The translations under genes and the position numbers were made by a program. Shown here piece after piece: positions 2,818 through 11,820 of a stretch of DNA of 15,076 nt (positions within the stretch are counted from its first letter, which is position 1; every line of letters starts with the position of its first letter). The notes below the pieces were generated by a model. It searched no databases and was not told the origin of the DNA. It saw nothing but the letters and a program-made list of their open reading frames with translations. This stretch comes from a virus (taxonomy: Duplodnaviria; Heunggongvirae; Uroviricota; Caudoviricetes), in IMG/VR virus record IMGVR_UViG_2531839662_000027, positions 1 through 15,076 of that record. The stretch is one strand, 5' to 3'.

Positions 2818-2890
2818 ACCGAAATGGTACTATTGAGTATTTATCCAGTGGGTTACGATGCCATTCCACCCAACTGGTGAGGCATCAAGG

Positions 2891-3151
2891 ATGTACAGCA
2901 AATACGACGATGCGCAGTTTCACTTGAGACTTCCGCATGAACTCCACGCGAAAATTAAACAGCGTGCGAAGATGAATAACAGGTCACTGAACTCAGAGAT
3001 AATTGCAGCGATTGAAGAATCATTGGCTAAACAAAGCTCTGCATCAGTTTACATTGACGATGCAGAGCGTATGGCAGAACAACAATCTGATATGGTTAAG
3101 AAAATTGTCTTTGATACGCTCAAAGAGATATATAAAAAAGACAGCAACTAA
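2891..3151 (+). CDS. mnt: Mnt-like ribbon-helix-helix repressor (Arc/MetJ family)
   Basis: Protein MYSKYDDAQFHLRLPHELHAKIKQRAKMNNRSLNSEIIAAIEESL...DDAERMAEQQSDMVKKIVFDTLKEIYKK resembles P22 Mnt as recalled (..NDAERLADEQSELVKKMVFDTLKDLYKK); P22-like synteny next to the tailspike. Start at 2891 preferred over the track start at 2858 by alignment and a GAGG 9 nt upstream. Confidence 0.7.
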   Translation: MYSKYDDAQFHLRLPHELHAKIKQRAKMNNRSLNSEIIAAIEESLAKQSSASVYIDDAERMAEQQSDMVKKIVFDTLKEIYKKDSN

Positions 3152-3168: not shown

Positions 3169-5014
3169 TTACTTCTGGTTATCATCACTGTTCATCCAGT
3201 ACATGATGCCTAGCCTTGATATGGTTTTCTTATCTGATTCTGGAAGTGAGTTGTAAAACGAGCGCCAAGCAGAAGAGCGTCTTACAGTTGTATCAACGAT
3301 GCTTTCTGGTGCTTGTTTTACTGCCAGCCTTGCTGCTTTCTGGAATTCTGGTGAGCTAATTAGCTTTTCTGCAGATTCAATTGATTCAGCGCCGCCCATC
3401 GCCCTGATTTTGCTGGCGACTTTTGCCCCAATTTCTGACCCAGCAACAGCACCTACTGCACTGAACGGTCCTGACACAGTTGAACCAACCGCAGTGCCAA
3501 TGCGTTGGGCATGGTTAGCAACAAATTCATTTGCCGCAGTGACGCGATTAAACCGTTTTACGAACTCGTTTAGTCTTCCTGTAGTTATCTCGTAAGATTT
3601 TGCGTCTTTGATAGCCTTTGCGACCTTATATACATCGTTCAGACCTGACATAGTCTCTTTTGGTAAATGTCGGGCAAGATTGCGCATCTGCCCGTTTGCT
3701 AACATGTTTTGATACCAGTCAGCAAACCCTGCAGGATTAAAATCAGCGCCACGTTTTCCGTTCGAAAGCATATCCCGAAGACCTGTTCCCAGTAGCTCGG
3801 TTCTTAGCTTCCTGGACGGCGTGTTTTGCATCAATTCACGAAATCCTTTGGCATCGCCTTTCGACATTGCCTGTAGTGCTGTAGTTGCTTTGCGAGAAAC
3901 ATCACCGTTCAGCGTTCTGCCAGTTAGATTAATCATTTGCTCTTCCATGCTTTTTCGCATCTGAACAAGCCTCTGAGCAACTTCAAAATCACGTAATGCA
4001 TTTGTCTCTGACAGCGCCGCCTTTTGATCATCGGCGAGCGAACCGTAAAGCCTCGATAAAGCAGCGCGATCAGCATCTTTATATGGTCCAGAATTCTTAT
4101 GAAGTGCATCACCAACAAGTCGTCGTTGCTTATTGAGATTTGCATAAGTTAATGCGCCGTTCTTGCCTGGATTAACTGCCCGAAAGACTCTCTTTTCAAT
4201 AGGGTCAAGGTTTTTCATCCCGCCAAGATCTTCTGCCACCTGTTTGAGCATTGACCTTGTTGATGGCGCATCAATTTTTGCACCTGCAGGCATCGCCTTT
4301 TCAACATTGCGATAAAGCTGGTCGCTTCGTTTCATCAGCGCAGACATTCTTCCATTGACCGTATCAATAAACTTGTCGCTCATACCAAGAGCATCTTTTG
4401 CACCGGAAACGCGATCAATTATCTCCCCCGCGCCCTGTGCTAGCTGCCTGATTGCTTCATTTTCCTGCACCTGTAGAGCAGAACCCGCACGGGACTTGAT
4501 TGCTTGCTCAACTGCCTTGTATTGCTCGTTCCCGGAAAAGTGTGAAGGGAGTAATGAATCAACATTAAGCCTTTCAGCAGACTCCAGAACTTCAGCCTGA
4601 GGATTGATATCTAGTTCATCAAGCGATGAAGCGAGATTTGGCCTTTTTTGTGCTGCTACTGTGCGAACGACTTCCTCTGGGTTCCTCGTCGCAGGCGTCA
4701 TTGGTACACCTTGTGCTACTCTTGCCTCTGCGGCATGAACCGCAGGATTTGTTGCTGCAGCGGCATCACCGGAGAATGGTGATGTTTCTGTTGGCGCCGT
4801 GGTCGCTCTCTGTGCAGATGTTTTATTGCCACTAATTATATTTGATGCACCACGAACACCACGGGTAACGCCATTTATCAGGCCATGCGTAGCAATGTTA
4901 AGTCCGGCATTAATAGCGGCATTTTCGGCAAAATCACCCCGTTGATTCGCCGCGTCAGCGAGAGAACCAATGACCATGTTTCCAGCTACACCTGCTCCAG
5001 GAACAAGATAACCG
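3169..5014 (-). pseudogene. Ejection (injection) protein, P22 gp16-like: portion downstream of the IS629 insertion
   Basis: 602-codon frame joins in frame to the 6325-6713 fragment when IS629 plus one CCG copy is removed, giving about 743 codons; last gene of the gp7-gp20-gp16-like series before mnt/tailspike. Confidence 0.55.
5012..5014. repeat. Left copy of the 3-bp IS629 target-site duplication (CCG)
   Basis: CCG immediately flanks both IS ends (5012-5014, 6325-6327); a 3-bp duplication is typical of the IS3 family. Confidence 0.55.
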
Positions 5015-5068
5015 TGAACCGCCCCGGAAATCCTGGAGACTAAACTCCCTGAGAAAGAGGTAAACAGG

Positions 5069-5395
5069 ATGACTAAAAATACTCGTTTTTCCCCCGAAGT
5101 CCGTCAGCGGGCGATTCGTATGGTTCTGGAAAGTCAGGATGAATATGACTCACAGTGGGCGGCAATTTGTTCCATTGCCCCAAAGATTGGCTGTACGCCG
5201 GAGACTCTGCGTGTCTGGGTTCGCCAGCATGAGCGGGATACCGGGGGCGGTGATGGTGGGCTCACCAGCGCTGAACGTCAGCGTCTGAAAGAGCTGGAAC
5301 GTGAAAATCGTGAACTGCGCCGCAGTAACGATATCCTTCGCCAGGCTTCCGCTTATTTTGCGAAGGCGGAGTTCGACCGCCTCTGGAAAAAATGA
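5069..5395 (+). CDS. IS629 OrfA (helix-turn-helix, leucine-zipper transposase N-terminal part)
   Basis: 108-aa ORF, IS3-family OrfA architecture; sequence recognised as IS629 OrfA. Confidence 0.9.
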
Positions 5396-6282
5396 TGCCA
5401 CTGCTGGATAAGCTGCGTGAGCAGTACGGGGTCGGACCGGTATGTAGCGAACTGCATATTGCCCCGTCAACGTATTACCATTGTCAGCAACAGCGACATC
5501 ATCCGGATAAACGCAGTGCCCGTGCGCAGCACGATGACTGGCTGAAGAAAGAGATACAGCGCGTATACGATGAAAATCACCAGGTATACGGTGTGCGTAA
5601 AGTCTGGCGTCAGTTGTTACGGGAAGGTATCAGAGTGGCCAGATGCACTGTGGCACGTCTCATGGCAGTTATGGGACTTGCCGGTGTTCTCCGGGGTAAA
5701 AAGGTCCGCACTACCGTCAGCCGGAAAGCCGTTGCCGCAGGCGACCGCGTAAACCGTCAGTTCGTGGCAGAACGACCTGACCAGCTGTGGGTGGCTGATT
5801 TTACTTACGTCAGCACATGGCAGGGCTTCGTCTATGTGGCGTTTATCATTGATGTGTTTGCCGGATACATCGTGGGGTGGCGGGTCTCATCGTCTATGGA
5901 AACGACATTCGTGCTGGATGCGCTGGAGCAGGCGTTGTGGGCCCGTCGTCCGTCTGGCACCATCCATCACAGCGATAAAGGCTCTCAGTATGTGTCACTG
6001 GCCTATACGGAGCGACTAAAAGAAGCCGGATTACTGGCATCAACAGGGAGTACAGGCGACTCGTATGACAACGCGATGGCTGAGAGCATCAATGGTCTTT
6101 ACAAAGCGGAGGTAATACACCGTAAGAGCTGGAAAAACCGTGCAGAAGTGGAACTGGCCACACTAACGTGGGTGGACTGGTATAACAATCGACGATTGCT
6201 GGGAAGGCTGGGCCATACTCCTCCGGCAGAAGCAGAAAAAGCTTATTATGCTTCCATCGGAAACGATGATCTGGCAGCCTGA
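5392..6282 (+). CDS. IS629 OrfB (DDE catalytic domain; expressed as OrfAB by -1 frameshift)
   Basis: 296-aa ORF overlapping orfA by ATGA; integrase-like DDE region (..[16 protein letters not shown]..). Confidence 0.9.
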
Positions 6283-6324
6283 GTTCACAGATAAAACACT
6301 CTCCAGGAAACCCGGGGCGGTTCA

Positions 6325-6327
6325 CCG
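6325..6327. repeat. Right copy of the 3-bp IS629 target-site duplication (CCG)
   Basis: See 5012-5014. Confidence 0.55.
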
Positions 6328-6713
6328 CCTATTGACTCTCCAGCTTGCGCGTAGGGGTCTGTCGGTCTGTCTACTGGACGATAAACATCATCCAATACTT
6401 TTGGCCCCCCAAGCCCCTGACTGATTGCATTAATCAGACTTGCGCCACCCTGCAATACGTCAAATGGTATGTTTACCAGACCACGACCAGCCTGTTCTGC
6501 AATTTGCCCTGCACTTTGACCACCAGTGAGCCAATCGCCAGCTTGTTGCATCAATGATGGTTCTTCCCGTGTTGGTGCATTATTGGCCTGATTAACTGTT
6601 TGTTGCTGAACAGCCTGACCAGCAAAATACTCATCAATGGCGGTGCCAATATCTTCGGTGCTCGTACCATCAGGGAAGGTAAATGTCTTACCGTTTGCAG
6701 TTACTTTCATCAT
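6325..6713 (-). pseudogene. Ejection protein gp16-like: N-terminal portion upstream of the IS629 insertion
   Basis: Start ATG at 6713-6711 overlaps the stop of the upstream gene (ATGA coupling); native coding runs to 6325, and the last 13 codons of the track ORF (6285-6323) are read from the IS629 end. Confidence 0.55.
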
Positions 6714-8116
6714 TCCACCGTAAATTGAATGCCTGATTTTGAGGTATATGATCCAACCTGATTCCTTGGTTCTCCTGAAGGTGTCGAATCTTGTGCTGGC
6801 GCTGCGTCAGTATTCATTGACATATACCGCTTAACGGCACTCCCCAATGATTCACCTTTTTTAACATCCAACCCCAATATCTGACCGCCATTACGCGATT
6901 GTCCTGGATTGCCATTCGCGCTCATCCACTCGGCTTTAAACTCATTAAACTGCGCGTTTCGTCGCTCAAGGTTTGCCATCGCATCAAGCCATCTTGCGAC
7001 CGTCTCAGGGTTATCCATGTCAGTTGGCGCACCCTGTCGAACGATCTCAACGTCTTTATCCGTTGCTGGGCCGGGAGGTAGGAATTTAAGAACCTGACTG
7101 TTAACAAGGGCATTTTGGCGAATGCGCAAATCACGCAATGTTGTATCGCTTCCGGTAAGTTTTGCGAACATGTTCTGTGCGTTACCGAACAAACCTGTCG
7201 TTGGTTTTTCTGCTCTGAACTGTTGAGCAAGCGCACTCATAGAATTGGCTGAGTTTGATGATGCTGTAGCATTGTTTACAGCCGTCTCGATGCCTTTTTC
7301 CATGTTTACTGACAGCTTAGGTGCTTCGCTAATCAACTGCTGAGCCTTTTCCTGCGCTTGCTGCATCTTAAACCCGAACTCTTGCTGATCCAGAGCCAAG
7401 CGTTGTGCTGCGATATTGTGCCCTGTCATTGCTGACTGATAGGAAAGGTTTTGCCCTCTCGCCTGAAGTGCCTCGCCAGCCTGATTGCTGCGGATTGTCT
7501 CTGCCAGCCTGCCTCGGTCAATCTCACGACCAGCCATCTTGTCCTGAACATTGAAGTAGTCAATCGGACCGAGAGCAGCCATCCCAAGGTGATCAACAAA
7601 CTCACCAAATCCTGAAGGATTCTGCTGATACATCTGAGCAACGCTGTTAGGGTCAACACCGACGCGAGTCAGTTCCTTGGCGTTGTTTTGCAGCCATGAT
7701 TGCATTGCTTCTGGAGACGATGACGCAAGGCGTGCGCCAGCCGCTAAGGTGCCGATAGAATTGCGCTGGTCTTCATCAATGAATCCCATGCCTTTACGAA
7801 CGGATTCAATCTGGTCTGGATATTGAGTAGCCAACTGACGCAAAGCACCGCGATCACCAGACGCATAAGCATTAGCGTACGCCTGCTGAAATTCTTTCTG
7901 CCGCTGAGCCTGCTTTTCCTGCTGAAACACCCCTGCAATGCCTGAAAGGCCTTGCAAAGCAGTAAGCCCAACATTGTTAGCGCCTGAACGCTCAATATCA
8001 TTGTTCTGCCTGATAAGCTGAAGCGTATTGCCGATGTCATTTACGCTCGGAGCGTTTGAGTTGACGCCGCCGATACCAGCTAACAATCCGCCATTTGATC
8101 CTTGCCAAGTAGCCAT
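6710..8116 (-). CDS. Ejection (injection) protein, P22 gp20-like, 468 aa
   Basis: Size nearly identical to P22 gp20 (471 aa as recalled), Gln/Ala-rich helical composition, position between the gp7-like and gp16-like genes, translationally coupled at both ends. Assigned by synteny and size, not by a verified alignment. Confidence 0.6.
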
Positions 8117-8125
8117 GATTACCCC

Positions 8126-8504
8126 TTAAAACAACGAGCCAAGCAATCCGATACCAGCACCAATGCCAGCGCCCCAAGGTGTTGATGTTCCCAAAAGGCT
8201 GGCAAGACCTGCACCGGCAATCGCACCAGACGTTCCGCCACTAATTGCTGTCTGAAGACTTGATGGTTTGTTGGCATTAGCAGCGGCAAGAGCTGCGCTT
8301 TGCTGTGCAATGCTGCTCATGTTGTTGGCGTACGTCTGCCCGGCGTTTGCCTGACCTTGCAGAGCACCAAGCCCAACGTTTGCCAGATTGTTGTAATTGC
8401 TCATCTGGTTTGATAACCAAGACTGACCGAGAGTCGGCGCGATCGTAGCCAGTTGATTGCTTGTGGCTGTCGAACCAAGTCCTCCCGTAACCGCGAGGCA
8501 TCGA
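8126..8504 (-). pseudogene. 3' fragment of a gp7-like ejection protein gene, 5'-truncated at the deletion junction
   Basis: The open frame runs into cro-derived DNA in a frame different from cro; the first 17 codons of track ORF 8126..8554 are cro DNA read out of frame, so no native start or RBS remains. C-terminus is Gly/Ala-rich and hydrophobic. Confidence 0.45.
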
Positions 8505-8582
8505 CTATACGCCGAGATCTTTAGCTGTCTTGGTTTGACCAAAGCGCATTGCATAATCTTTCAGAGTTATGCGTTGTTCCAT
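8505..8582 (-). pseudogene. cro: cro, truncated after codon 25 by a deletion junction
   Basis: Minus strand reads CATGTACTAAGGAGGTTGTATGGAACAACGCATAAC...AAAGATCTCGGCGTATAG: lambda cro RBS and first 25 codons (MEQRITLKDYAMRFGQTKTAKDLGV), then a stop where lambda has TAT CAA AGC; sequence 3' of 8505 is unrelated to cro. Confidence 0.8.
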
Positions 8583-8606
8583 ACAACCTCCTTAGTACAT
8601 GCAATT

Positions 8607-8676
8607 ATTATCACCGCTAGAGGTAAAATAGTCAACACGCACGGTGTTAGATATTTATCCCTTGCGGTGATAGATT
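8607..8676. promoter_or_regulatory. Lambda-type right operator: oR1 (8609-8625), oR2 (8633-8649), oR3 (8656-8672), with pR (minus strand) and pRM (plus strand)
   Basis: 17-bp operators TATCACCGCTAGAGGTA, CAACACGCACGGTGTTA and TATCCCTTGCGGTGATA match lambda oR1/oR2/oR3 with one change in oR1; pRM-like TAGATA (8648-8653) and TAGATT (8671-8676) precede a leaderless cI ATG at 8683; pR -35/-10 read on the minus strand at 8635-8630 and 8612-8607. Confidence 0.85.
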
Positions 8677-8679
8677 TAA

Positions 8680-9396
<717 letters not shown>

Positions 9397-9403
9397 CACG
9401 TAA

Positions 9404-9841
9404 ATGATTAAAGAACGTATTTCTTATATCATTCCGATTGCGATGGATGAAGGCAACCCCGTAACTCCAGTTCTTATCTATGAAATGGATAAAGACTCCC
9501 ATGAAGTGGATCTGTCATTTGGCGCTTTTTTTATCGGCCTTAAGGCTACAAAAAAATATTCCATAGGCATTGAGGTTTTCAATGCTCAAGAAATACCGAT
9601 ACCAATTGACACAAAACTGTACTCCAACCATAAGTTTTTTACGGTAGCAGAAGCCAACGATGGAGAAACCATCGTATCAACTTCTATGAGAATTAACTTC
9701 CCAAGGGTGAAAATTATCAAGCCTGGGATATTCGAAGTTAGAGCATCACTGGTTAATCCTGAGAAAGGCGAAGTAATTGATGTAAAAAGTTCGTTTTTTG
9801 ACGTGAAGATAACAGGATCAGTTCGCGATGAGTTTAGATAA
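9404..9841 (+). CDS. Hypothetical 145-aa protein in the rex position (first gene of the cI-linked module)
   Basis: ATG 7 nt after the cI stop, no terminator between; no transmembrane segment evident; AT-rich; no similarity to RexA that I can recognise. Confidence 0.6.
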   Translation: MIKERISYIIPIAMDEGNPVTPVLIYEMDKDSHEVDLSFGAFFIGLKATKKYSIGIEVFNAQEIPIPIDTKLYSNHKFFTVAEANDGETIVSTSMRINFPRVKIIKPGIFEVRASLVNPEKGEVIDVKSSFFDVKITGSVRDEFR

Positions 9842-10199
9842 CAAGGTTGCTCAGCTTCGTCCAAATCAAAACATATCTCGCCCAATTGGACACTATTCCA
9901 CTGATGATGCATACTCACGGCATGGTGGAGGAAACGGCGGAGGTAACATGCTTGAGGCTAGAGTTGCAAAGCTAGAGTCTGATGTTGAATACATCAAGCG
10001 CGATCTCGCTGAGGTAAAGTCAGATATAAAATCTGTTGATTCTCGTCTGTCAGGTATTGAGACAAGCATTAGCTCAGCAAAAACCACCATTAAGGCATCT
10101 GCGGTCGTTGTCAGTTTCGTGTTCGCATTTTGCGCCTACATTTTTGGAAGTTATGTTTCCAAAATCCTTGATGCCTTAAACGGACTCGTTCTTAAGTAA
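9828..10199 (+). CDS. Hypothetical small membrane protein (123 aa, or 80 aa from the internal start at 9958): Gly-rich linker, coiled coil, C-terminal hydrophobic segment
   Basis: Overlaps the previous ORF by 14 nt; heptad-like LEARVAKLESDVEYIKRDLAEVKSDIKSVDSRL; hydrophobic AVVVSFVFAFCAYIFGSYV; internal ATG at 9958 is preceded by GGAGGTAAC; a strong terminator follows. Confidence 0.6.
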   Translation: MSLDNKVAQLRPNQNISRPIGHYSTDDAYSRHGGGNGGGNMLEARVAKLESDVEYIKRDLAEVKSDIKSVDSRLSGIETSISSAKTTIKASAVVVSFVFAFCAYIFGSYVSKILDALNGLVLK

Positions 10200-10206
10200 C
10201 ACACAA

Positions 10207-10233
10207 CCCGGCCTCAGTGCCGGGTTTTCTTTG
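10207..10233 (+). terminator. Rho-independent terminator ending the cI operon (t-imm equivalent)
   Basis: Perfect 6-bp GC stem CCCGGC/GCCGGG with 6-nt loop followed by TTTTCTTTG, directly after the second rex-slot ORF. Confidence 0.7.
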
Positions 10234-10383
10234 CCTCTCGATCCCCCTTCCCAACAACACATAACCATTTGTATTTATTGGAAAACTAATAGATACAACT
10301 TGCTAAACAGTGCAATTCTGATCCCTCACCTACCTAACAATTCACCCCTGCAAAAAATAAATCCATATAAAAAACATACAGAT

Positions 10384-10446
10384 AACCATCTGCGGTGATA
10401 AATTATCTCTGGCGGTGTTGACACAAATACCACTAGCGGTGATACT
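10384..10446 (+). promoter_or_regulatory. Lambda-type left operator and pL: oL3 (10384-10400), oL2 (10404-10420), oL1 (10428-10444); pL -35 TTGACA (10418-10423), -10 GATACT (10441-10446)
   Basis: AACCATCTGCGGTGATA, TATCTCTGGCGGTGTTG and TACCACTAGCGGTGATA match lambda oL3/oL2/oL1 as recalled; 17-bp spacer between -35 and -10; oriented toward N. Confidence 0.85.
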
Positions 10447-10491
10447 AAACACATCAGCAGGAAGCTGGAAGCCAAACGGAACAGATTGGCA

Positions 10492-10526
10492 TGCTCTTTA
10501 ACTTCGATGGGGCGCTGACAAAGCGC
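10492..10526 (+). promoter_or_regulatory. nutL site: boxA (TGCTCTTTAAC, 10492-10502) and boxB hairpin (GCGCT-GACAA-AGCGC, 10512-10526), P22 type
   Basis: boxA-like motif followed 9 nt later by a 5-bp stem/5-nt loop hairpin whose sequence matches the P22 boxB as I recall it; located between pL and the N-like gene. Confidence 0.7.
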
Positions 10527-10645
10527 AAACAGATACCAAACGAGATGGGTTTGGCGGTGATGTGAATTGCAGCAGTAACGACAGCAACCAGAAGATCAGC
10601 ATCTGGCGCATCACCACCAAAGCTATTTCACATGAGGAAAACATC

Positions 10646-10954
10646 ATGACGGTAATCGTGTACGGAAAATCAACATTTGCAGGAAATGCCAAGACTCGCC
10701 GTCATGAGCGGCGCAGAAAGCTGGCCATCGAGCGTGATTCCATCTGCAACATCATCGATTCGATCTTCGGCGCAGACAGTGAGGAGCCTGTTCAGGAAGC
10801 CCCGAGAAAACGTTTAAGCCTTTCTGAAAAAGCAATATCACTCGGAATCCTTCGCTGCAAGAAGGCAGATGAATGCAGTGGAAGTATTTGCCTGCCAAAC
10901 GTAGCCATTTACGCGGCAGGCTACCGGAAATCAAAACAACTGACGGCGAGGTAA
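10646..10954 (+). CDS. N: N-family transcription antiterminator, P22 gene 24 type
   Basis: Arginine-rich motif GNAKTRRHERRRKLAIERD near the N-terminus matches the P22 N RNA-binding peptide as recalled; ATG at 10646 preceded by GAGGA; first gene after pL/nutL. The track ORF from 10562 is an upstream in-frame extension, judged not used. Confidence 0.8.
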   Translation: MTVIVYGKSTFAGNAKTRRHERRRKLAIERDSICNIIDSIFGADSEEPVQEAPRKRLSLSEKAISLGILRCKKADECSGSICLPNVAIYAAGYRKSKQLTAR

Positions 10955-11182
10955 GTGATGAATCAGACATACATTCCATCATGCTTGAGAAATCTGCCAA
11001 AGCAGAAAGCAAAGCCCCGCAAGCAAGCCATAAAGGACGCTAAGGCAGAGGTTATTGATCAAGCAATACAATTGCTCAGGGAGGAGTTAAGAAGTGGCAA
11101 GCTCGAAGGAATGATGATGCCCTATCAGCGCGGATATCTATCGGCGATTAGTAAGTTGGAAGTACTGAAGAGTGAATTATGA
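10955..11182 (+). CDS. Hypothetical 75-aa basic/helical protein
   Basis: ORF starting GTG-ATG immediately after the N stop (coupled); no recognisable motif. Confidence 0.45.
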   Translation: MMNQTYIPSCLRNLPKQKAKPRKQAIKDAKAEVIDQAIQLLREELRSGKLEGMMMPYQRGYLSAISKLEVLKSEL

Positions 11183-11244
11183 ACTATCTGGAATTTCCGG
11201 ATGGTTCATTGTTTTGGCAGCAAACCACTTATTTGAGGTGATAT

Positions 11245-11331
11245 ATGGAAGAAGAATTTGAAGAGTTCGAAGAGCATCCTCAGGATGTGATGGAACAATA
11301 CCAGGACTATCCTTATGACTACGACTATTGA
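11245..11331 (+). CDS. Possible micro-ORF encoding a 28-aa highly acidic, aromatic peptide (MEEEFEEFEEHPQDVMEQYQDYPYDYDY)
   Basis: ATG preceded by GAGGTGATAT; the 3' end overlaps the ral start by 17 nt; below the ORF-track length cutoff. Confidence 0.3.
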   Translation: MEEEFEEFEEHPQDVMEQYQDYPYDYDY

Positions 11332-11515
11332 TAAAAATCAATGGTGTGGACAATTCAAGCGATGCAATGGATGCAAGCTGCAATCGGAATGCATGGTTAA
11401 ACCTGAAGAAATGTTTCCTGTAATGGAGGATGGGAAATATGTCGATAAATGGGCAATACGAACGACGGCAATGATTGCCAGAGAACTTGGTAAACAGAAT
11501 AACAAGGCTGCCTGA
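11315..11515 (+). CDS. ral: Ral, restriction alleviation protein (66 aa)
   Basis: Translation MTTTIDKNQWCGQFKRCNGCKLQSECMVKPEEMFPVMEDGKYVDKW... matches lambda Ral as I recall it; expected position in the pL operon downstream of N. Confidence 0.8.
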   Translation: MTTTIDKNQWCGQFKRCNGCKLQSECMVKPEEMFPVMEDGKYVDKWAIRTTAMIARELGKQNNKAA

Positions 11516-11574
11516 TGGTGGCCTTTGTTTTTTGGCCGTAAATAATTTCATGCTTATTACAATCAAGGGGATAT

Positions 11575-11820
11575 ATGGAAGAACAAGCAAACAAGATTCT
11601 CGTAGAACTACTGCAAAAAGCCAGTAATGGAATAGACGCGGCTGTTTCATTTAGCCAGGCACAGATTCCTGATGTCATCCATCAGCTTTTGATGTGGCAC
11701 GCCGTATCATCAGCTGGAATTCAGGCTACATGGTCAGACGAAGAATTCATTCGTCAGATGAACAAAATGCTCAATCAGCACAAAGAACAGGAGAAAGATG
11801 ATGATTCTGACTCTGAATGA
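11575..11820 (+). CDS. Hypothetical 81-aa protein with a strongly acidic C-terminal tail (EQEKDDDSDSE)
   Basis: ATG preceded by AAGGGGATAT; overlaps the next ORF. Confidence 0.5.
   Translation: MEEQANKILVELLQKASNGIDAAVSFSQAQIPDVIHQLLMWHAVSSAGIQATWSDEEFIRQMNKMLNQHKEQEKDDDSDSE

Follow-up and report, generated by a model that had tools for sequence, protein, structure and literature searches.

The stretch of DNA analysed here (15,076 nt, referred to below as the window) is the prophage lying between argW and dsdC in the porcine ETEC E. coli strain UMNF18 (NZ_AGTD01000001.1, positions 2882519-2895506). Outside two IS insertions, which only the window has, the identity between the two is 100%. 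The gene order in the RefSeq record of UMNF18 is tRNA-argW, intS, tailspike, an Arc/Mnt-type gene, a gp16-like gene, a gp20-like gene, gp7′ and cro′, continuing with cI, two hypothetical genes, N, ral, recT and others, torI and dsdC. In the window, the tailspike and gp16-like genes are each interrupted by an IS element. The features on either side of the cro′–gp7′ junction, in window coordinates, are as follows.

3169..6713, minus strand: gp16-type ejection gene, IS-interrupted (sequence comparison with UMNF18 RefSeq)
5015-6324: IS3-family (IS1203/IS629-like) element of 1,310 bp inside the gp16-type gene, with a target duplication CCG
5350-5466: ALIL frameshift pseudoknot of the IS3 element (Rfam)
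6710..8116, minus strand: gp20-type ejection gene, intact, 468 aa (Pfam Inj_translocase, E = 1e-77; annotation)
8126..8489, minus strand: 3′ 53% of a P22 gp7 / Sf6 gene 11-type ejection gene (megablast, Pfam, PGAP)
8126..8554, minus strand: chimeric ORF of 142 aa made by the junction, also called as a gene in a Logan assembly
8488..8507, minus strand: relic of a DnaB-like replicative helicase gene, the 20-mer TAGTCGATGCCTCGCGGTTA (exact matches in helicase genes)
8505..8582, minus strand: truncated lambda-type cro, codons 1-25 (8582-8508) being MEQRITLKDYAMRFGQTKTAKDLGV, then TAG at 8507-8505
8672-8656, 8649-8633 and 8625-8609, minus strand: OR3, OR2 and OR1, respectively (alignment to lambda J02459 and FHI_NMBU_03)
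8635-8630 and 8612-8607, minus strand: -35 (TTGACT) and -10 (GATAAT) hexamers of pR (alignment, promoter scan)
8683..9396, plus strand: cI repressor gene, intact, 237 aa, 95% identity to lambda CI over its full length
9404..10199, plus strand: two overlapping ORFs in the rex slot, 145 aa and 123 aa (phrog_5893, phrog_6136)
10205-10226: terminator-like hairpin after the rex-slot ORFs
10383..10954, plus strand: OL3-OL1, pL, leader and N (alignment to lambda, promoter scan, Pfam)

An Rfam scan of the window returned nothing besides the pseudoknot of the IS3-family element.

The two flanks of the junction were placed by megablast searches of 5,426 complete E. coli genomes and 50,697 phage records, and each is 97-100% identical to hundreds of phage or prophage sequences. 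On the cro side, positions 8506-9100 show 97-99.7% identity to the cro/cI region of lambda-immunity phages and prophages (lambda, HK97, mEp234, FHI_NMBU_03), and the identity to cro stops at 8506. Reading along the minus strand, 8700-8583 contains the divergent lambda-type control region, whose operators and promoter are followed by a Shine-Dalgarno sequence (TAAGGAGG) and the cro ATG at 8582, and the TAG at 8507-8505, created by the junction, replaces the TAT (Tyr26) of lambda and of the intact relatives. An earlier sequence-only reading had described just this arrangement, a lambda cro ribosome binding site and codons 1-25 running into TAG in place of TAT, and it is borne out by translation and alignment over 8582-8505. 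The 66 aa of a functional Cro are here reduced to 25 codons before the stop, and PGAP annotates the piece as a partial pseudogene (‘Cro/CI family, missing C-terminus’).

On the other side, positions 7900-8492 show 99.2% identity (megablast) to Sf6, a Shigella phage, over its genes 11/12, which are homologous to P22 genes 7 and 20. The gp7-type homology begins at 8492/8489 and ends at its natural stop at 8126, matching Pfam P22_gp7 over profile positions 110-230 of 230 (E = 9e-62). The remnant lacks a native start and ∼109 codons of the full-length gene, and is likewise annotated by PGAP as a partial pseudogene (‘DNA transfer protein, missing N-terminus’). The chimeric 142-aa ORF starts at an ATG within cro, in another frame, and encodes 21 junk residues and then the C-terminal 121 aa of gp7. 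No convincing Shine-Dalgarno sequence precedes it, and the ORF is probably a by-product rather than a functional gene.

The ends of the element are well defined. The 16-nt att core of the KplE1 prophage, CTGCAGGGGACACCAT (sequence taken from PMC2951348), is present in exactly two copies, one at the 3′ end of argW and one just past torI, where none would be expected by chance. The left end of the element is therefore marked by argW and intS and the right end by torI and dsdC, so that att repeats and the intS/torI pair flank an element of 14.4 kb in RefSeq, or ∼16.5 kb when the two IS elements are counted. The intS gene is annotated as frameshifted in the UMNF18 RefSeq record, which is a 454-era assembly.

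None of the cII, replication, nin or Q genes is annotated between the two att cores, nor is any gene for lysis, terminase, portal, scaffold, coat or head completion. Every lytic gene that is missing from the UMNF18 element is carried by intact relatives that are likewise integrated at argW: the prophage of UMNK88 (∼42 kb) has a CI protein identical to that of UMNF18, and the prophage of FHI_NMBU_03 (∼39 kb) has identical CI and rex-slot proteins, a complete cro and a gp7-like gene with 96.9% identity across the part retained in UMNF18. The predicted loss of cII, replication, Q, lysis and head genes thus holds across the whole att-bounded element, and at the novel joint itself two truncated genes meet, cro cut after codon 25 and gp7 without its first ∼109 codons, with the helicase relic between them.

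The immunity region and the recT-containing left operon are retained. OR2, OR3, OL2 and OL3 are identical to those of lambda and the promoter hexamers are intact, with pRM on the strand opposite pR and the OR/pR region spanning 8607..8672. In OR1, and likewise in OL1, there is a single G>A change relative to lambda; that in OR1 is also present in intact FHI_NMBU_03 and is probably natural variation. The pL promoter has its -35 at 10418 and a -10 ending at 10446, the leader that follows diverges from the nutL region of lambda, and the N antiterminator gene occupies 10646-10954 (Pfam N_peptide, E = 2e-40). The CI protein (WP_001274764.1) is identical in the intact prophages of UMNK88 and FHI_NMBU_03, and the Logan Pfam records for it show HTH_3 and Peptidase_S24 domains. 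Its Ala-Gly self-cleavage site and Ser/Lys catalytic residues are conserved, as we read the alignment against the known positions in lambda CI. The element thus has an S24 repressor of lambda specificity together with tripartite OR and OL and the promoters pR, pRM and pL. Annotation, alignment, Pfam and the promoter scan all agree that cI, the rex-slot module and the pL operon are in place, as had been proposed. The first complete gene downstream of pR is the gp20-like gene, and a scan of the minus strand found no terminator-like site between the two; the intact pR would be expected to read into the ejection-gene remnants, as also suggested earlier.

The behaviour of the element can be predicted by analogy with lambda. 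CI expressed from pRM would keep pR and pL off, making the cell immune to lambda-immunity phages, and the 25-residue Cro stub, without a recognition helix, should be inactive, leaving a switch with neither a lytic nor an anti-immune state. As there is no Cro, and no replication genes, nutR, Q, lysis or packaging genes, there is no lytic programme, and the element cannot replicate, lyse the cell or be packaged. Once CI had been cleaved in a RecA-mediated SOS response, pL would drive N, RecT and TorI with no Cro to shut it off, and derepressed pR would yield only the cro stub, possibly the gp7 remnant, gp20 and a 5′ fragment of the IS-broken gp16; repression could then re-form. Because cI, OR1-3, pR/pRM, OL/pL and N are all intact, the inference of immunity without a lytic exit is sound, and immunity itself is likely. 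An engineered lambda in which Cro Tyr26 is changed from TAT to TAG gives no plaques without a suppressor, and expression from its pL operon is increased (PMC1885671).

Our preferred reading, to which we assign a probability of roughly 0.9, is that the scar marks an internal deletion in an Sf6/HK620-type (P22-like) prophage of lambda immunity at tRNA-argW, and that it reflects ordinary decay and not a demonstrably selected device. Taken at face value, the IS insertions and the possible frameshift in intS show that this decay is continuing. The sequence-only reading had gone further, seeing a domesticated remnant kept for immunity and defence. A fuller form of this idea is a cassette maintained by selection for lambda-type superinfection immunity, possibly for defence by the rex-slot genes, and for an SOS-inducible RecT, with no risk of lysis. 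It is true that IS insertions lie in structural genes, with the immunity region and left operon still intact, that loss of cro removes the lytic state in lambda genetics, and that cryptic prophages can benefit their hosts (PMC3105296). However, the junction is found in only one of the 5,426 complete E. coli genomes, and a 38-mer specific to it is present in no JGI metagenome contig and, in IMG/VR, in the UMNF18-derived contig only. This distribution indicates that the junction is recent and strain-specific, too recent to show selection, and because the retained genes do not differ from their counterparts in intact prophages they carry no signal of purifying selection.

Nor do the rex-slot ORFs match a known defence family. 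Searches against PADLOC (E ≤ 0.01) gave no credible match, the only one being weak and CorA-like (E 0.0046, second ORF); in PHROGs the two proteins fall in families of unknown function only, and in Pfam all matches, including a weak one to XhlA, are below threshold. Loss of full cro is also rare: among 621 lambda-type cro-OR-cI records, 612 reach a query coverage of 80% or more and were taken to have full cro, leaving nine without. Finally, in K_EC180, a P22-like remnant that was deleted independently, it is the immunity region that has been lost. The claim of domestication is therefore unsupported, in view of the single occurrence of the junction, the erosion by IS elements and the lack of a defence-family match, and we regard selective maintenance as unlikely. 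More doubtful still is the composite proposal that one complex deletion of the MMBIR or alternative end-joining type produced the scar and that the cro-less CI cassette is a selected, monostable immunity module with SOS-inducible N-RecT, in which case it would be the natural counterpart of an engineered recombineering prophage.

Returning to the decay of an ordinary prophage, the junction itself preserves a trace of the lost interval. Both megablast searches left 13 bases (8493-8505) unassigned, and 16 bases (8505-8490) belong neither to cro nor to gp7. These 16 bases are unique to a helicase gene, and they are bordered by a TA at 8507-8506 in common with cro and a TA at 8489-8488 in common with gp7. 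The joint therefore reads cro ...CTCGGCG TA / TAGTCGATGCCTCGCGGTTA (helicase) / TACGGGAGGACTTGG... gp7, with TA shared at each crossover. The relic translates to VVDASRL, which corresponds to helicase residues 282-288.

Several observations identify this source. The intact argW prophage of FHI_NMBU_03 has the exact 20-mer, spanning both TA dinucleotides, in its helicase gene, and so do at least 118 IMG/VR phage contigs besides that of the UMNF18 remnant itself. The context of the 20-mer in the IMG/VR contigs is constant (...GATTTGGATGTATGGG, the 20-mer, then TCGGTCGAAGAAAT...), as is its frame within a long ORF. In contigs whose locus reaches that far, the 20-mer sits 2.46-2.72 kb downstream of the start of a lambda-type cro. 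Some 890 E. coli genomes match the 20-mer, and among the matches listed the annotation is replicative or DnaB-like helicase and the alignment starts precisely at the first T of the 20-mer. The helicase ORF has DnaB and DnaB_C domains (Pfam). In the UMNK88 prophage, GTCGATGCaTCGC was located in the replicative helicase gene, on the same strand, and with its flanks it matches window positions 8507-8488 at 19 of 20 bases. In the intact relatives, the helicase gene lies between cro and gp7, on their strand. By our estimate ∼5e-6 exact matches to a 16-mer would be expected by chance on one strand of ∼20 kb, and there is no second copy of the 16 nt inside the window.

The junction is thus tripartite, consisting of cro, a 16-nt helicase relic and gp7. 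Alignment of the breakpoint puts the end of cro at 8506 and the beginning of gp7 at 8492/8489, with TA microhomology at both joints. What stands of the earlier description is that a deletion within cro joins the immunity region to ejection genes, and that the ejection gene survives as a 3′ part without its native start (P22_gp7 110-230 of 230); what does not stand is a direct cro-gp7 fusion with gp7 beginning right after 8505, where the helicase relic lies instead.

A simple two-ended deletion would require the 13-16 unmatched bases to be either untemplated filler or part of a divergent gp7 allele with GTCGATGCCTCGC at the position of the joint. This would agree with the 13 bases left unassigned by megablast, and G8492 and G8491 are indeed compatible with the gp7 register as well. 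T8490, however, mismatches the gp7 alleles of Sf6 and B7A, which is accounted for by the helicase origin of this base. A gp7 allele running through the unmatched bases was rejected, as none of the 349 other genomes matching the gp7 segment covers 80% or more of the query, and in each of the 11 matches listed from these genomes the match ends at 8492, with one mismatch. Untemplated filler, for its part, has to contend with an exact, in-order, same-strand 20-mer match in the helicase gene of intact relatives. We therefore consider a two-ended deletion very improbable.

With the helicase relic as an internal marker, the missing DNA can be divided into two intervals. Measured on FHI_NMBU_03, these are 2,383 nt between cro and the helicase position and 16,645 nt between the helicase position and gp7, or 19.0 kb in all; on UMNK88 the first of them measures 2,617 nt, with a total estimated at ∼22 kb, IS included. 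The losses comprise the 3′ two-thirds of cro, nutR/cII, the replication initiator, nearly the whole of the DnaB-type helicase gene, the nin region, Q, the lysis, terminase, portal, scaffold, coat and head-completion genes, and the 5′ half of gp7.

The 2-nt TA microhomologies at both joints point to RecA-independent illegitimate recombination, which could have produced the scar in two ways. Either one template-switching or end-joining event copied a few helicase bases en route, or two successive deletions had end points that fell by chance 16-20 nt apart. Since it would be a coincidence for two independent deletions to end within 20 nt of each other, we slightly favour a single event (two template switches, or end-joining with a short templated insertion), two sequential deletions being possible. 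Intermediates with a single half-joint, either cro-helicase or helicase-gp7, occur in none of the 5,426 complete genomes; as the junction is strain-specific, this result is uninformative with regard to one event or two.

Two further features of the DNA around the joint were recorded. An 11-nt imperfect inverted repeat (8469-8479 / 8529-8539) surrounds it and was judged to be at chance level, with an estimated ∼0.65 such pairs expected per 400 nt. A promoter-like sequence across the joint, AAGACA-16-TATAGT, was also judged to be at chance level.

A second P22-like prophage, of ∼45 kb, adjoins ybhC in UMNF18, where it occupies the lambda attB site. Its repressor/cro pair is a different one, and it has a full set of morphogenesis and lysis genes, with IS insertions in sieB and in the helicase gene. 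The possibility that the lytic genes found elsewhere in UMNF18 belong to the argW element was rejected, as they are those of this separate, heteroimmune prophage with its own att context, and the suggestion that the argW element lacks a lytic set therefore survives. The helicase gene of the ybhC prophage carries the same 20-mer as the scar, and the 16 nt could have been copied from there instead.

The junction is also present in an independent data set. In the Logan assembly of SRR10970593, the chimeric ORF (8126-8554) is found on one further contig, of 8,491 bp, which does not differ from the window in a 201-nt comparison across the joint and which spans 6.2 kb on one side of the junction and 2.2 kb on the other. 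The contig terminates in the terminal inverted repeat of the IS3-family element that interrupts gp16. At the gp16 IS site, RefSeq UMNF18 has kept 6 nt of the IS end (TGAACC) and is missing 10 nt of flank; from these sequences, the IS seems to have been collapsed in the 2011 RefSeq assembly, a probable reason for the ‘frameshifted’ annotation of the gp16-like gene.

Given such defects, and the frameshift in intS nearby, and given that the ybhC prophage has both a gp7 gene and the same helicase allele, one might suppose that the old assembly had made a chimeric join, such as one linking the argW and ybhC prophages, but this is the least credible of the explanations, being contradicted by the identical junction in the independent short-read assembly (Logan, SRR10970593, 8.5-kb contig), by the two IS differences that mark the window as a sequence record separate from RefSeq, by the correct flanking of the element by both att cores and chromosomal genes, and by the ybhC prophage having its own complete cro-to-gp7 interval. 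On the sequences compared, the joint is backed by at least two independent data sets and is not an assembly artefact, the explanation that the sequence-only reading had itself named as a danger.

Rac, DLP12 and Qin are lambdoid cryptic prophages that were formed by deletion, having lost morphogenesis and lysis modules and kept fragments of early operons. The UMNF18 element is a further instance of a deletion-derived cryptic lambdoid/P22-like prophage, in which only the exact anatomy of the scar is new. A literature search on UMNF18 prophages and on SRR10970593 turned up no description of it. A comparable arrangement is seen in the K_EC180 / ETEC4067 remnant at ybhB-ybhC, where N′ is followed by ∼0.7 kb including a DnaB C-terminal fragment and then by gp7′. 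Both elements have a small DnaB-type helicase island between two deletion joints, but K_EC180 has lost cI and cro altogether, and its joints are ∼0.7 kb apart rather than 16 nt.

By site and recombination module, the nearest natural relative is KplE1/CPS-53 of E. coli K-12, which has the same argW site and 16-nt att core, with intS at attL and torI at attR (PMC2951348). The IntS/TorI recombination module of KplE1 is shared with HK620, Sf6 and CUS-3, and KplE1 and the UMNF18 element are both defective P22-like remnants formed by internal loss. KplE1, at 10.2 kb, has lost the CI regulatory module (PMC2951348), whereas the UMNF18 element keeps cI, OR, OL, N, the recT left operon and tailspike and ejection genes, and has the precise scar of cro, helicase and gp7.

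The nearest functional analogue is the laboratory cro-minus defective lambda prophage used for recombineering. Engineered defective lambda prophages and phages (the EL350-type with a cro-deleted cI857, and cI857 with Cro-Tyr26-amber and P-amber) keep the repressor and the recombination genes under pL, and removal of Cro and of replication and lytic functions allows strong expression from pL without killing by replication or lysis. The engineered Cro amber and the UMNF18 stop even affect the same codon, codon 26, by the same change of TAT to TAG (PMC1885671). This coincidence is accidental, because in UMNF18 the G comes from the helicase relic. The UMNF18 element also differs from the engineered prophages in being natural, in having a wild-type, SOS-cleavable CI rather than cI857, in its RecT-type recombinase and P22-like backbone, and in that its right end joins ejection genes as opposed to host DNA.

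The element thus provides a clean example of a lambdoid/P22-like prophage turning cryptic, with ∼19-22 kb lost at 2-nt microhomologies. The 16-nt relic dates or orders the deletion event, and illustrates how a short ‘filler’ at a deletion joint can be traced to the interval that was lost. In passing, the architecture of the laboratory cro-minus defective lambda has been reproduced in nature, by happenstance. By the same analogy, UMNF18 is predicted to be immune to lambda-immunity phages and unable to release a phage from argW. Beyond annotation the importance of the element is little, although the comparison does flag the defects of the RefSeq UMNF18 assembly around IS elements.

The stop at codon 26 of the truncated cro gene (TAT to TAG, window 8505-8507) is made by the junction itself. 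The window thereby carries a change identical to that of lambda Cro-Tyr26-amber, an engineered allele used in recombineering phages (PMC1885671), but the match is a coincidence, because the G is supplied by the helicase relic, the scrap of a DnaB-type helicase gene lying between cro and the gp7 remnant. The operators of the immunity region also differ from those of lambda, with the same single G to A change in OR1 (8609-8625; TACCTCTAGCGGTGATA) and OL1 (10429-10445; TACCACTAGCGGTGATA). Since FHI_NMBU_03, an intact related prophage at argW with an identical CI, has the OR1 change too, the difference probably reflects natural variation in the operators of this immunity type.

Among 5,426 complete E. 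coli genomes, 620 (∼11%) have an immunity region of the lambda type (cro-OR-cI), and these include many O157:H7 strains. The cro-OR-cI query was covered over at least 80% of its length in 612 of 621 records from these genomes, which we took to mean that cro is full length in those records.

Another P22-like prophage, ∼45 kb long, occupies the lambda attB site of UMNF18 at ybhC (L127, NZ_AGTD01000001.1 793585-837204). Its repressor/cro pair is unlike that of the window, its head, lysis and ejection gene set is complete, and it also carries the helicase 20-mer of the relic. With its helicase gene interrupted by IS1203 and its sieB by ISVsa5, this prophage may be replication-defective too.

An independent P22-like remnant with an internal deletion lies between ybhB and ybhC in swine strains, as in K_EC180 (NZ_CP062203.1, L007 14471-15696), and the same type is present in ETEC4067/4070/4071. 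Its order is a truncated N gene, a DnaB C-terminal fragment, a small ORF and a gp7 fragment. The scar has two joints with an island of ∼0.7 kb between them, and both cI and cro are gone.

Three further loci of the argW element contain the following ORFs:

2858-3151, 97-aa protein with an Arc-like domain and an Mnt C-terminal domain, flanked by the tailspike gene and the gp16-like gene
9404-10199, two overlapping ORFs (145 and 123 aa) in the rexAB position after cI
11177-11650, minus strand, 157-aa ORF, antisense within the pL operon

The rex-slot ORFs match phrog_5893 and phrog_6136, both of unknown function, and proteins identical to both are encoded by FHI_NMBU_03. The second ORF has a weak, sub-threshold XhlA-like match; neither has a credible match in PADLOC. 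The Arc/Mnt-type gene has no adjoining ant gene, and the Arc-family gene at the same position in FHI_NMBU_03 likewise lacks one, whereas UMNK88, another intact relative at argW, has a full arc-ant module. The antisense ORF, which has no match in Pfam, PHROG or PADLOC and no PGAP annotation, is probably spurious.

Two IS copies in the window are absent from RefSeq UMNF18:

953-1718, IS1-family copy, 766 bp, interrupting the tailspike gene, with a target duplication of 8 bp, CGCGGTTG
5015-6324, IS1203/IS629-like copy, 1,310 bp, in the gp16-like gene, target duplication CCG

At the gp16-like site (L001 18430-18436, the RefSeq copy of the element), all that is left of the IS is 6 nt from its end (TGAACC), and 10 nt of flank are missing. 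This looks like an assembly collapse, which probably accounts for the 'frameshifted' gp16-like annotation in RefSeq.
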